Notes: generated from the letters alone by a model not told the origin. A DNA stretch of 64,000 nt from a virus (IMGVR_UViG_3300045988_118731:1-64000), one strand, 5' to 3'. Positions 23,493-26,816 are shown, numbered from the stretch's first letter. Translations and numbers: made by a program.

Positions 23493-24206
23493 ATGTACAT
23501 CAATTTCAGACAACTTGCAGCATCAGACATGACTCCTAATGATCTTGCCAATCTTCTTGCCATAAGACAGAAGGATTCGGTTATGATCGAAGCCATGCCG
23601 GAAGAAGATGCTGGTAGATATATAGAGCTTGGCCTGGTTGAGAAATTAAAATCAGGCGTGATGAGATTGACCAACAAAGGAACGTCTTTTGTGAATTATA
23701 TAGAGACACCGGAGATGACAGACGAGGTTCTGGAAACGTTGAAGATTATGATAGGAATGTACGAATCATATTCAAAAGACATAGGTGTCAGCAGAAAAGA
23801 AGCGGAATCCAGATTGTGTTGGTTTATGGGTAACACCTTATTCAAGAAAGAGGTCATACTTCAGGTAACGGAATCTTATATAGCAGAGTCAGGAGATTAT
23901 ACAATGAGCTTATGTAACTTCATATGGAAACCGCCTTCTCAGGCTTTTTCAGTCCATATGAACCTTAAAAATTCAAAGCTCTTTGACTTAATAGCTGAAA
24001 AATTTAAGATCGCTACCGAGCCTTATTTGGAGTCTAAGAAGAATAAGGAAATGGATTGGTTGTTTGCCGTATCTAAATTGCCTACGCCGCCGGCTAAAGG
24101 CAATCCGGATTATTTGTTTACCGGAAGCTCGGAGACAGATAAAGAGCGATTGAAAAACATAAAAACGTATTTATTTAACAAAATTAGAAAGCAATGGAAA
24201 AAGTAA
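23493..24206 (+). CDS. hypothetical protein, first gene of ACP-NfeD-flotillin operon
   Basis: ORF with overlapping stop/start coupling to ACP-like gene. Confidence 0.5.
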   Translation: MYINFRQLAASDMTPNDLANLLAIRQKDSVMIEAMPEEDAGRYIELGLVEKLKSGVMRLTNKGTSFVNYIETPEMTDEVLETLKIMIGMYESYSKDIGVSRKEAESRLCWFMGNTLFKKEVILQVTESYIAESGDYTMSLCNFIWKPPSQAFSVHMNLKNSKLFDLIAEKFKIATEPYLESKKNKEMDWLFAVSKLPTPPAKGNPDYLFTGSSETDKERLKNIKTYLFNKIRKQWKK

Positions 24207-24445
24207 GAATCAGAAAGATAATAGAGGATATAATTATTACTCGGTTTCTTAATTCGGAAATAGATATAGTTCATGAAGAAGATGTGTCGTTTAAAGAACT
24301 TGGATTAGATTCTGTTGATCGGATTGAGCTTGATGTGATGGTGGAACAAAAATTCAATATTGTTATTATTGATTATGATATGGAGACCATCAAAGATATG
24401 ACTGATCTTGTTTACAAAATAATAACAGAAGGATATGGGAAGTGA
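24194..24445 (+). CDS. acyl carrier protein-like (phosphopantetheine attachment motif LGLDSVDRIEL)
   Basis: about 80 aa, acidic, DSx serine motif followed by a helix-II-like segment, as in ACPs. Confidence 0.6.
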   Translation: MEKVRIRKIIEDIIITRFLNSEIDIVHEEDVSFKELGLDSVDRIELDVMVEQKFNIVIIDYDMETIKDMTDLVYKIITEGYGK

Positions 24446-24929
24446 CATAATTTTATGCATGGCTTTAATAGCGTCATTTGCTTTTGTTATACAGTTTTTG
24501 TTGTCGATATTAGGATCTGATCTGGATACGGATATTGACATTGACAGTGCTTCTGATTTAAGTATGTCTTTGTCGGACATCATATCATTCAAGGGCATAA
24601 CACATTTCATCCTTGGATATAGCTGGACTACCTACTTTTCGGGTTCTCATTTAGTAGGGGTTGTGATAGGGTCGTTTTTCTTTATCGTTTTGTTTTACGT
24701 ATATAAGTTACTTCTTAAGTTAAAACAAGAAATGGTGTACGAATGTCCAGAAGATTTAAATGGCAGAGAGGTGGAGATAGTATTTAGATCAAGAAAGAAC
24801 CATTATATGGTAAATATTGTGAAAAACGGGAGACAGGAACAGATGAGAGTAAGGTGCTTGTCTGGGAAAAATTACAAAAATGGTGACAAGGTGAACATAA
24901 AATACGAAGAAGGAGAATTAAGTATCTAA
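24435..24929 (+). CDS. NfeD-like membrane protein (flotillin partner; YuaF/YqiJ-like)
   Basis: N-terminal TM helices plus C-terminal beta-rich soluble domain (EVEIVFRSRKNHYMVNIVKNGRQEQMRVRC); sits immediately upstream of the flotillin gene, as in bacterial nfeD-floT operons. Confidence 0.6.
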   Translation: MGSDIILCMALIASFAFVIQFLLSILGSDLDTDIDIDSASDLSMSLSDIISFKGITHFILGYSWTTYFSGSHLVGVVIGSFFFIVLFYVYKLLLKLKQEMVYECPEDLNGREVEIVFRSRKNHYMVNIVKNGRQEQMRVRCLSGKNYKNGDKVNIKYEEGELSI

Positions 24930-24962
24930 TTTTTTTATATCAACAATTAAATTTTAAAAGTT

Positions 24963-26663
24963 ATGACAACAATCATATACGTGTCAGCTATCTTAGCTGT
25001 AGTGATTATTTTGACAATCATCGGAGTCTTATCAAGGTATCGTAGATGCAAGCCTAATCAGGTTTTGGTCGTTTACGGTAAGACAGGTGGGGAAAAGAAA
25101 TCGGCGAAATTATATCATGGTGGAGCAGCATTCGTGTTGCCTATTATCCAAAGCTATGATATTTTATCTATGGAGCCTATGCAAATAGATTGTAGGCTTA
25201 CTGGTGCTTTGTCATCTCAGAATATTAGAGTAGATGTGCCTACAACTATTACAGTAGCTATCAGTACAAATCCTGAAATCATGCAAAATGCAGCAGAAAG
25301 ACTTTTGGGGATGGATACCGAATCTACTGAAAATCTTATTACAGACATCGTTTACGGTCAGATGCGTTTGATTATTGCCGAAATGACAATCGAAAAACTT
25401 AATTCTGATAGGGATGAGTTTTTGGATAAGGCAAGAAAAAACATTGATAACGAACTTAATAAATTGGGTCTTTATCTTTTGAACATTAACATCAGTGACA
25501 TCAGAGATGAAGCCGGCTACATCATGAATCTTGGTAAAGAGGCTGAAAGCAAGGCTCTGAACGAAGCACAGGCTAATATCGAAGAACAGGAAAAGCTGGG
25601 TGCTATTAAGATTGCTGTACAACAGAAGGAAAAAGAAACGGCTGTAGCTAATACCCAAAAAGAGCAAGAGATTCAAATTGCCTATACTGAAAAAGAAAAA
25701 GAAACGGTAGTAGCTGAAACAAAGAAAGAAAAAGAAGTAGCTTTGGCTTTAACCGATAAAGAAAAACAGATCGGTGTAGCTCAAGCCGATAGAGATAGGG
25801 CTGCGGCTATAGCAAAGACTTTGGCTGACAAGGAATCAGCGATCGCAAGATCTAAGGCGGAACTTGAAGTAAACAAAGCTGAAGCCGAAAGAATGGAAGA
25901 AGTTGGGAAGAATAAAGCTGAAGCTGACAAACAAGCAGCTATAGCAATACAAGACTCTGAAGCTCAGATTAAGAAAGCTGAAGCTGAGAAAAATGCTTCT
26001 GTAGGCTACAACAATGCCCAGAAAGAGGTTGCTGTATCAGAATCAGAATTGCAGGTTATCAAAGCTCAATCAGAAAAGAAAGCCGGGGAAGAGAAAGTTA
26101 AATCGGAAGCGGCTGTGAAAACGGCAAAAGAGCTTGCTGATAAAGAAGTGGAAGAAGCTAAAGCTAAGAAGGTTCAAGCTGCGCTTAAAGCTGAAAAGAT
26201 TGTGCCGGCTGAAACCCAGAAGGAAGAGGCTATCTTGCAAGCTGATGCTGAAGCTGAGAAGATCAAACGCCGGGCCGATGCTGAAGCAGCAGCACATTTG
26301 GCAAAAGCAGAGGCGGAAGCAAAAGCTATTCAGATGAAGCTGGAAGCGGAAGCCGAAGGTAAGAAAAAGTCGTTGATGGCAGAAGCCGACGGATTTAAGG
26401 CTATGGTGGAAGCAGCAGAATCCAATCCTCAGATCGCCATCCAGTACAAGATGGTTAATCAGTGGAAAGAAATTGCTGGAGAACAGGTTAAGGCGTTCGA
26501 GCACATCAATCTCGGAAATATCACGGTATTTGACGGCGGTCAGAACAGCACCGGTAATTTCCTTAACAATGTTGTTAAGGCCGTTGCTCCGGCATTGGGA
26601 GTCATTGATCAGCTTCCGATTGCAGATACTTTAAAGAAGTTAAAAGGAGATGACAAAAAATAA
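24963..26663 (+). CDS. flotillin-like SPFH/Band-7 protein
   Basis: N-terminal TM; GGAAFVLPIIQ, AAERLLGM, TIEKLNSDRDEF, DIRDEAGYIMNLGK match FloT/YqiK as recalled; long EA-rich coiled coil. Confidence 0.85.
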   Translation: MTTIIYVSAILAVVIILTIIGVLSRYRRCKPNQVLVVYGKTGGEKKSAKLYHGGAAFVLPIIQSYDILSMEPMQIDCRLTGALSSQNIRVDVPTTITVAISTNPEIMQNAAERLLGMDTESTENLITDIVYGQMRLIIAEMTIEKLNSDRDEFLDKARKNIDNELNKLGLYLLNINISDIRDEAGYIMNLGKEAESKALNEAQANIEEQEKLGAIKIAVQQKEKETAVANTQKEQEIQIAYTEKEKETVVAETKKEKEVALALTDKEKQIGVAQADRDRAAAIAKTLADKESAIARSKAELEVNKAEAERMEEVGKNKAEADKQAAIAIQDSEAQIKKAEAEKNASVGYNNAQKEVAVSESELQVIKAQSEKKAGEEKVKSEAAVKTAKELADKEVEEAKAKKVQAALKAEKIVPAETQKEEAILQADAEAEKIKRRADAEAAAHLAKAEAEAKAIQMKLEAEAEGKKKSLMAEADGFKAMVEAAESNPQIAIQYKMVNQWKEIAGEQVKAFEHINLGNITVFDGGQNSTGNFLNNVVKAVAPALGVIDQLPIADTLKKLKGDDKK

Positions 26664-26670
26664 ATACAAT

Positions 26671-26692
26671 GGCCCAAGGTTACACTTGGGCC
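26671..26692 (+). terminator. terminator hairpin (ggcccaag gttaca cttgggcc) after flotillin gene
   Basis: perfect 8-bp stem, 6-nt loop, 8 nt after the stop codon. Confidence 0.6.
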
Positions 26693-26816
26693 TAATTGAA
26701 GAAGCAAAAGCAGCATTCATAGATTTCCTGCCGGCAGGGACAGTGCTTTACTAATTACAATATTTTTAACATGGATTTTGGACAAGATTTAGAACCAGAA
26801 GAACTGACCAAGCATT

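Follow-up and report, generated by a model that had tools for sequence, protein, structure and literature searches.

A flotillin and a candidate NfeD-like partner in the replication block of an epsilon crAss-like phage resemble a chromosomal operon of gut Bacteroidales

We analysed a 64,000-nucleotide stretch of viral DNA (IMGVR_UViG_3300045988_118731:1-64000; hereafter the window) and, within it, two adjacent + strand genes at 24435-26663 that encode an NfeD-like membrane protein and a flotillin. By sequence comparison, this cassette is a diverged copy of an operon that gut Bacteroidales, the order predicted to contain the hosts, carry on their chromosomes. It appears to have been captured by one sub-lineage of epsilon crAss-like phages, where it occupies a variable slot in the replication block, between a gene pair (ORF1 and an acyl carrier protein (ACP)-like gene) and a PD-(D/E)XK exonuclease gene. 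Purifying selection acts on the cassette with the same strength as on the replicative helicase.

The DNA of the window is 94% identical to GenBank OR575929.1 ('phage csAssE-Sib' in that record). crAssE-Sib is an epsilon crAss-like phage of ~151 kb for which the genus Epsilonunovirus has been proposed (Babkin et al., Viruses 2024, PMC11054128), and on the strength of this identity we assign the window to an epsilon crAss-like phage. According to the CRISPR spacer evidence cited in PMC11054128, the hosts predicted for epsilon crAss-like phages are Bacteroides, Parabacteroides and Porphyromonas; infections by crAss-like phages are described in the same paper as long and often non-lytic. Genes for DnaB helicase, primase, a PD-(D/E)XK exonuclease and an SF2 helicase flank the region (Pfam, PHROGs and the annotation of OR575929.1), as expected from its initial annotation as a phage replication block.

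Identity of the two cassette genes

The second cassette gene (24963-26663, + strand) encodes a protein of 566 amino acids. It matched Pfam Band_7 (PF01145; 90 bits, E 2.5e-25, residues 30-211) and the Flot C-terminal domain (PF15975; residues 450-559, scoring 38.2 bits where the cut-off is 27). Two further features were read directly from the sequence: an N-terminal hydrophobic stretch that covers residues 4-23 (IIYVSAILAVVIILTIIGVL), and, between the SPFH domain and the C-terminus (about residues 200-470), long heptad-like repeats rich in E, A and K. With SPFH domain, C-terminal domain, anchor and coiled coil all recognisable, we assign the protein to the flotillin (SPFH) family. The initial annotation had called it a flotillin of the FloT/YqiK type and the 83-amino-acid product upstream an ACP; the family assignments hold for both, and the motifs quoted for them (LGLDSVDRIEL, LPIIQ, AAERLLGM and DIRDEAGYIMNLGK) are all present in the translations. 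Compared with the nfeD-floA and yuaF-floT operons of Firmicutes and yqiJ-yqiK of E. coli, however, the similarity of the phage copy is low. The flotillin scored 145.8 bits against the FloT equivalog model (NCBIfam NF058507), far below its cut-off of 700, and is 23% identical to E. coli YqiK over its full length. It had no match in PHROGs. Judged by sequence identity, its orthologs are the Bacteroidales flotillins and not the B. subtilis FloT equivalog.

The flotillin coiled coil varies in length in the phage population, at about residues 305-390. One relative (L006, 8001-9446) carries an 85-amino-acid in-frame deletion in a flotillin that is otherwise 98% identical, and IMG/VR copies range from 489 to 597 amino acids. 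Coiled-coil length is expected to set the height of the cage in SPFH assemblies.

The first cassette gene (24435-24929, + strand) encodes a protein of 164 amino acids. It has three transmembrane (TM) helices with an acidic D-x-D-x-D loop, followed by a C-terminal six-strand OB-type barrel (residues ~112-163). In an AlphaFold2 model, built from four sequences only, the protein is predicted to share the layout of NfeD, with N-terminal TM helices and a C-terminal cytosolic OB-fold barrel. Searches of Pfam, NCBIfam, PHROGs and PADLOC returned no NfeD match. Pfam NfeD (PF01957) was matched neither by the phage protein nor by six Bacteroidales orthologs, even at E <= 10, and Pfam YqiJ, a further point of difference from the Firmicutes and E. 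coli operons, was not matched by the phage protein. A single member of the family, out of 71, matched Pfam NfeD (E 6e-5). Profile comparisons were marginal (E. coli YbbJ, P = 9e-4; YqiJ, P = 0.05; YuaF, E = 0.12-0.37), with alignments that were always co-linear over the barrel. When the PDB was searched with a profile of the C-terminal domain, YuaF was the sole full-domain match in a result dominated by designed beta-propeller repeat artefacts. A match of the TM protein to SpoIIAA (E 0.006) was dismissed as noise.

The decisive evidence for an NfeD-like assignment is synteny. In Bacteroidales genomes retrieved by a flotillin scan, with the flanks searched using a local hidden Markov model (HMM), the partner family lay immediately upstream of the flotillin gene on the same strand in 79 of 80 loci; the lone exception was at a contig end. 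The same upstream, co-oriented position relative to the SPFH gene is found in the window, where a 33-nt AT-rich spacer separates the two genes, and in locus L179. We therefore call the 164-amino-acid protein NfeD-like because of its architecture, fold and operon position, and not because of membership in a sequence model. Thus, the earlier description of an NfeD-like membrane protein stands for fold, architecture and synteny but finds no NfeD HMM match, whereas the proposed conservation of the nfeD-flotillin pairing in bacteria could be shown specifically for the likely host order. The product is labelled 'transmembrane protein' in OR575929.1 and 'hypothetical protein' in Table S1 of PMC11054128. 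A family of ~165 amino acids that Pfam does not recognise, and whose members now carry the labels 'hypothetical' or 'transmembrane', is hereby defined as the Bacteroidales flotillin partner.

To place the origin of the cassette, we compared it with bacterial copies. Flotillins from Bacteroides, Phocaeicola, Parabacteroides, Prevotella and Leyella share about 66-70% identity with the phage flotillin overall (63-70% at the widest). Divergence is uneven along the protein, with 74-78% identity to the host copies in the SPFH domain, 51-57% in the coiled coil and 71-79% at the C-terminus; the NfeD-like partner is 32-43% identical to the host partners. In a rough neighbour-joining tree the phage flotillins grouped in a separate clade, at roughly equal distance from every genus sampled. 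Of the non-phage flotillins in a large protein database, the nearest lies amid housekeeping genes (PGI, GPDH, an aminoacyl-tRNA synthetase and chorismate synthase; L005), and upstream of this bacterial flotillin is a 165-amino-acid open reading frame (ORF) that shares 38% identity with the phage TM protein. A closer donor was sought among the top non-phage matches of the TM family; the flotillin beside one of these (P0170) was only 41% identical, leaving Bacteroidales closest.

The phage copy and the Bacteroidales operon agree in having two genes in the same order, on one strand, with a short spacer and similar lengths (~165 and ~550-570 amino acids). The phage copy differs in lying in a phage replication block, in forming its own clade, in the disproportionate divergence of coiled coil and partner, and in composition: GC content at third codon positions (GC3) is 0.37 for the phage flotillin gene and 0.40 for the phage DnaB gene, compared to a mean of 0.52 for host genes. 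The low identity to host copies together with the phage-like GC3 argues for an old capture of a host operon, and for neither recent transfer nor contamination.

The ratio of non-synonymous to synonymous substitution rates (dN/dS) was 0.03-0.055 for the flotillin gene and 0.046 for the TM protein gene, similar to the 0.03-0.054 measured for DnaB. Both cassette genes were intact in all 80 IMG/VR genomes. With the closest homologs in the host taxon, a patchy distribution in related phages and purifying selection, the pair has the marks of a host-derived accessory set of the moron or auxiliary metabolic gene type.

The bacterial flotillin on L005 (P0158, 659 amino acids; 8001-9980) contains an internal duplication of ~85 amino acids from the end of the SPFH domain, with STDPEVMQNAAERMLG... 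occurring twice. The duplication may be real or may be a metagenome assembly artefact.

Proposed role of the cassette during infection

The function of bacterial flotillin and NfeD is debated. In S. aureus, the OB-like barrel of NfeD binds the flotillin coiled coil, stabilises flotillin oligomers and helps an ATP-independent holdase activity on unfolded proteins that is needed under stress; the same paper describes flotillin genes as usually taking second place in operons with nfeD (PMC11222466). By analogy, we favour, with moderate confidence, the view that the phage pair is a captured and selected two-gene cassette that would make a phage flotillin/NfeD scaffold or holdase during infection. 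The cassette would probably be transcribed with the replication-block genes by read-through, as a promoter of its own is not recognisable. The N-terminal anchor would hold the flotillin in the inner membrane, and the protein would oligomerise through the EA-rich coiled coil, onto which the OB barrel of the phage NfeD-like protein would dock as in S. aureus FloA-NfeD (PMC11222466). The outcome would be a phage-made SPFH scaffold, or an ATP-independent holdase, that keeps membrane proteins and the membrane itself stable in infection. The payoff, which is the least certain step, would be an envelope and a membrane proteome kept working in long, non-lytic or persistent infections. We read the helicase-level constraint across the sampled flotillin-bearing genomes as a fitness benefit of such a scaffold during infection. 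The earlier suggestion that the phage builds or remodels a membrane microdomain in the host is a reasonable inference for the two-gene cassette alone.

Several points weigh against this assignment of role or against the evolutionary evidence behind it. The hosts already carry their own copy, which makes the gain from a second one less obvious. The coiled coil is both the most diverged part of the flotillin (51-57% identity) and variable in length, which would fit an altered or antagonistic function equally well. The tree in which the phage flotillins form their own clade is a distance tree, with sampling restricted to Bacteroidales by the search patterns. For the selection estimates, synonymous divergence (dS) from the lineage with 83% flotillin identity (L007) is saturated, and the unsaturated comparison (L006) has few substitutions. 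Finally, to our knowledge no epsilon crAss-like phage has been cultured.

A role in competition or defence is unlikely. Here the flotillin/NfeD assembly would change the inner membrane in a way that keeps superinfecting phages out, or would protect the cell from membrane-disrupting abortive-infection effectors or premature holin action. The cassette is accessory and lies in a variable slot, as host-takeover or exclusion morons typically do, and in B. subtilis the yuaF-floT operon belongs to a membrane-stress regulon. The acquisition of full-length flotillins by other phages also suggests a recurrent benefit. Phage flotillins are rare (9 of 50,697 records, several of them fragments), with at least three that are full-length and independent, and at least two of the acquisitions occurred in other phages. 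These are Vibrio phage KIT04 (Demerecviridae), with a 'flotillin family protein', and the gut phage MT835492.1; like the phage of the window, they are large phages of lytic type, and their flotillins, at 26-28% identity, represent independent acquisitions. However, neither the flotillin nor the TM protein had a PADLOC match, no known exclusion or anti-defence gene adjoins the cassette, and an experimental link was not found in the searched literature.

The gene contexts of the two other flotillins differ. In KIT04, the flotillin (L002, 3680-5350) is preceded by an 82-amino-acid TM-only protein without an OB domain. MT835492.1, an unverified gut phage, encodes a 517-amino-acid flotillin (L003, 4929-6482) without an NfeD-like neighbour. 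Among the flotillin-bearing phages, the group represented by the window is ecologically the most prominent.

We consider slightly less likely still that the phage flotillin interferes with its host counterpart, co-assembling with it or displacing it, with the diverged coiled coil and partner re-specifying the clients of the assembly. One example would be modulation of a membrane protease, as HflK/C modulates FtsH in E. coli. The domain-specific divergence described above would fit this reading, with the SPFH domain (74-78%) and C-terminus (71-79%) held close to the host copies while the coiled coil and the partner (32-43%) have moved away, as would the length polymorphism of the coiled coil. 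The coiled coil is, in addition, the site bound by NfeD in S. aureus (PMC11222466). On the other hand, coiled coils generally evolve faster than globular domains, and the proposal is purely inferential. HflK/HflC-FtsH and phage lambda provide a precedent in that an SPFH assembly influences the phage life cycle via a membrane protease. The analogy is functional only, since the SPFH proteins in that system are host-encoded and HflK/C is not a flotillin.

In a bolder version, the pair is more than a mere spare copy: with coiled coil and partner re-specified, it would build phage-specific SPFH assemblies, or poison or re-target those of the host, thereby controlling host membrane proteostasis (for example a membrane protease or envelope stress) and underpinning a persistent, non-lytic carrier state. 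We rate this as a long shot, in the same range as a defensive role; if true, a flotillin system encoded by a virus would for the first time have a defined role in infection. In the human gut, crAss-like phages rank among the most abundant viruses, and their persistent infections are poorly understood. As a natural diverged pair, the two proteins also lend themselves to dissecting NfeD-flotillin specificity.

ORF1 and the ACP as neighbours of the cassette

The initial annotation had grouped four genes into one translationally coupled operon and proposed, among other outcomes, lipid modification. All four lie on the + strand: ORF1 (23493-24206, 237 amino acids), the ACP-like gene (24194-24445, 83 amino acids) and the two cassette genes (164 and 566 amino acids). 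In the corresponding functional reading, the ACP, perhaps loaded with the help of the 237-amino-acid protein, supplies or modifies lipids that the NfeD-like protein and flotillin organise into a phage-specific microdomain or an anchor for a replication compartment. We regard this as very unlikely. Coupling itself applies in part: ORF1 and the ACP gene overlap by 13 nt and the ACP and TM genes by 11 nt, but the flotillin gene follows only after its spacer. Tight packing also runs on 5' of the four genes, where a 65-amino-acid ORF stops 3 nt upstream of ORF1, and the four-gene 'operon' therefore has no defined 5' boundary. The adjacency and the overlaps nevertheless speak for a unit, as does gene order. 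Lineages whose flotillin is ~97% or ~83% identical keep the order 237-amino-acid gene, ACP, TM protein and flotillin, between DnaB and exonuclease, and so do 79 of 80 IMG/VR loci.

The distribution of the genes in other relatives argues the opposite. On other large phage contigs ORF1 has homologs that are as little as 36% identical, and the cassette is missing from the relatives whose ORF1 is 36-60% identical (L009-L012). The closest of these, a 154-kb relative with ORF1 at 60% identity (L009, 6675-9946), has ORF1 and the ACP, but in the cassette slot a DNA methylase and two radical-SAM genes stand in place of TM protein and flotillin. In the other three (L010, L011 and L012), ORF1 is found without ACP and without flotillin, with other genes in the slot. 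A 105-amino-acid ORF in L010 was considered as a divergent ACP and rejected, having neither a PP-binding match nor the motif.

ORF1 is a winged-helix (MarR-like), putatively DNA-binding core gene of the lineage that occurs without the others. It had no usable match in Pfam, NCBIfam, PHROGs or PADLOC; a match to LmuC (E 0.01) was dismissed as noise. Its size and position had made an Sfp-type phosphopantetheinyl transferase (PPTase) conceivable, which the fold excludes, and the absence of an enzyme fold likewise counts against a part in lipid supply.

The identity of the ACP is supported by PP-binding (PF00550; 26.5 bits, cut-off 20.8) and by PHROG 5934 'acyl carrier protein', although against the NCBIfam ACP equivalogs it scored 28 bits or less, always below cut-offs of 70 or more. 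Ser40, in the DSVD motif, presumably aligns with Ser36 of AcpP. Like other phage ACPs (PHROG 5934; g153 of Yersinia phage fHe-Yen9-04; the ACP modules of Flavobacterium jumbophages), it is a small PP-binding protein that carries a DS motif and is encoded by a large phage. In contrast to these, it is an orphan without an annotated acyl-handling partner, evolves fast and has lost the serine in a sister lineage. Its dN/dS is 0.26-0.35, compared to 0.03-0.06 for its neighbours, which corresponds to a 5-10x faster evolution, and it retains only 37% amino acid identity to the 83% lineage, where the neighbours are at ~80%. The ACP is truncated in 6 of 79 IMG/VR genomes (loci L093-L172) that are otherwise near-identical and have intact TM protein and flotillin genes.

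In L009, the attachment serine is replaced by aspartate (D-D-L-D), whereas it is kept in the flotillin-bearing lineages. Retention of the serine with flotillin, and its loss where flotillin is lacking, would fit a shared function of the four genes. As far as the sequence goes, the loss in L009 hints at a role of the ACP fold other than acyl carriage, or at pseudo-functionalisation. The annotation of the whole crAssE-Sib reference genome lists no PPTase, acyl ligase, acyltransferase or lipid enzyme, which leaves lipid modification via the ACP without support, though host enzymes could act on the phage ACP. Moreover, the bacterial source operon has two genes only. Since the TM protein and flotillin behave oppositely to the ACP in constraint and integrity, we take the two-gene cassette as the functional unit. 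The ACP and the 237-amino-acid gene are neighbours with separate histories and not components of the cassette system, and the idea of a four-gene ACP-lipid-raft operon is corrected accordingly.

That the region might be host contamination, a chimeric assembly or a decaying, functionless passenger, as the host chromosomal origin of its nearest relatives could suggest, is already refuted. The arrangement recurs in one complete genome from GenBank as well as in 80 independent IMG/VR contigs and in ENA, JGI and Logan assemblies; host identity is only 66-70%, with GC3 matching the phage background; and purifying selection is strong, with no disrupted TM protein or flotillin copy seen in the 80 IMG/VR genomes.

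The combination had been thought unknown from described phages. This holds in part: OR575929.1 and Table S1 of PMC11054128 already carry the labels 'flotillin family protein' and 'acyl carrier protein', but the combination is discussed nowhere. The main text of PMC11054128 is silent on the flotillin, the ACP and the 164-amino-acid gene, and nothing relevant to phage flotillins was found in the searched literature. What is new here is the recognition of the upstream gene as an NfeD-like partner, the interpretation of the pair as a captured and strongly constrained copy of a Bacteroidales operon, and the setting apart of ACP and ORF1.

The 3' hairpin, promoter signals and other features of the window

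A GC-rich hairpin lies 8 nt past the flotillin stop codon (26671-26692, + strand). It has the composition GGCCCAAG-GTTACA-CTTGGGCC, with an 8-bp stem containing 6 G-C pairs. The 66-nt stretch around it folds with -19.6 kcal/mol (z = -4.0), and none of 200 shuffled sequences was as stable. In the 83% lineage (L007), loop and flanks have diverged but the hairpin persists, one A-T pair having become G-C in a compensatory change. Its retention in a diverged lineage with a compensatory change argues that the hairpin is selected. No T-tract follows it on the + strand. Thus, of the strong terminator proposed for this position, a real and conserved hairpin remains; it is not a canonical intrinsic terminator but may help to form the 3' end or to stabilise the mRNA. 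A terminator scan had placed the hairpin on the wrong strand.

A small ORF (26650-26754, + strand) overlaps the flotillin stop codon and contains the hairpin. It has 34 amino acids here and 50-52 in relatives, and a 10-bp indel relative to crAssE-Sib alters its C-terminus. In view of this indel we consider the hairpin, and not the peptide, to be the conserved feature.

A sigma-70 promoter scan gave 18 sites compared to 13.5 expected, with a sigma-70 model that is uninformative for a Bacteroidales host. Between 21084 and 25738, no Bacteroides-type -7 box was found on the + strand. Since the -7 motif is not enriched in the window (77 sites vs 68 expected), its absence near the cassette is weak evidence.

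Upstream of the four genes, a TnpB-only element (IS605 OrfB / Cas12f-like TNB) of 1.29 kb occupies 21387-22675, with its ORF at 21438-22631 (+ strand). The element sits between the DnaB helicase gene and a 200-amino-acid ORF, where crAssE-Sib has only 52 bp, and its GC content is 0.31 compared to 0.38 for the window. Copies of TnpB are present at different sites in other epsilon genomes (L007 and L010).

Near the start of the window (51-381), a 44-bp unit is repeated in tandem in 7.4 copies with 89% identity. Each unit holds CAAAATTA, which on the - strand reads as the Bacteroides -7-like TAATTTTG. The repeat may represent an origin of the iteron type or an array of promoters. Finally, GC skew and AT skew both switch sign at ~36 kb (window positions ~36000-37000), coinciding with the change from + strand replication genes to giant structural genes on the - strand (ORFs of 2140 and 2213 amino acids).

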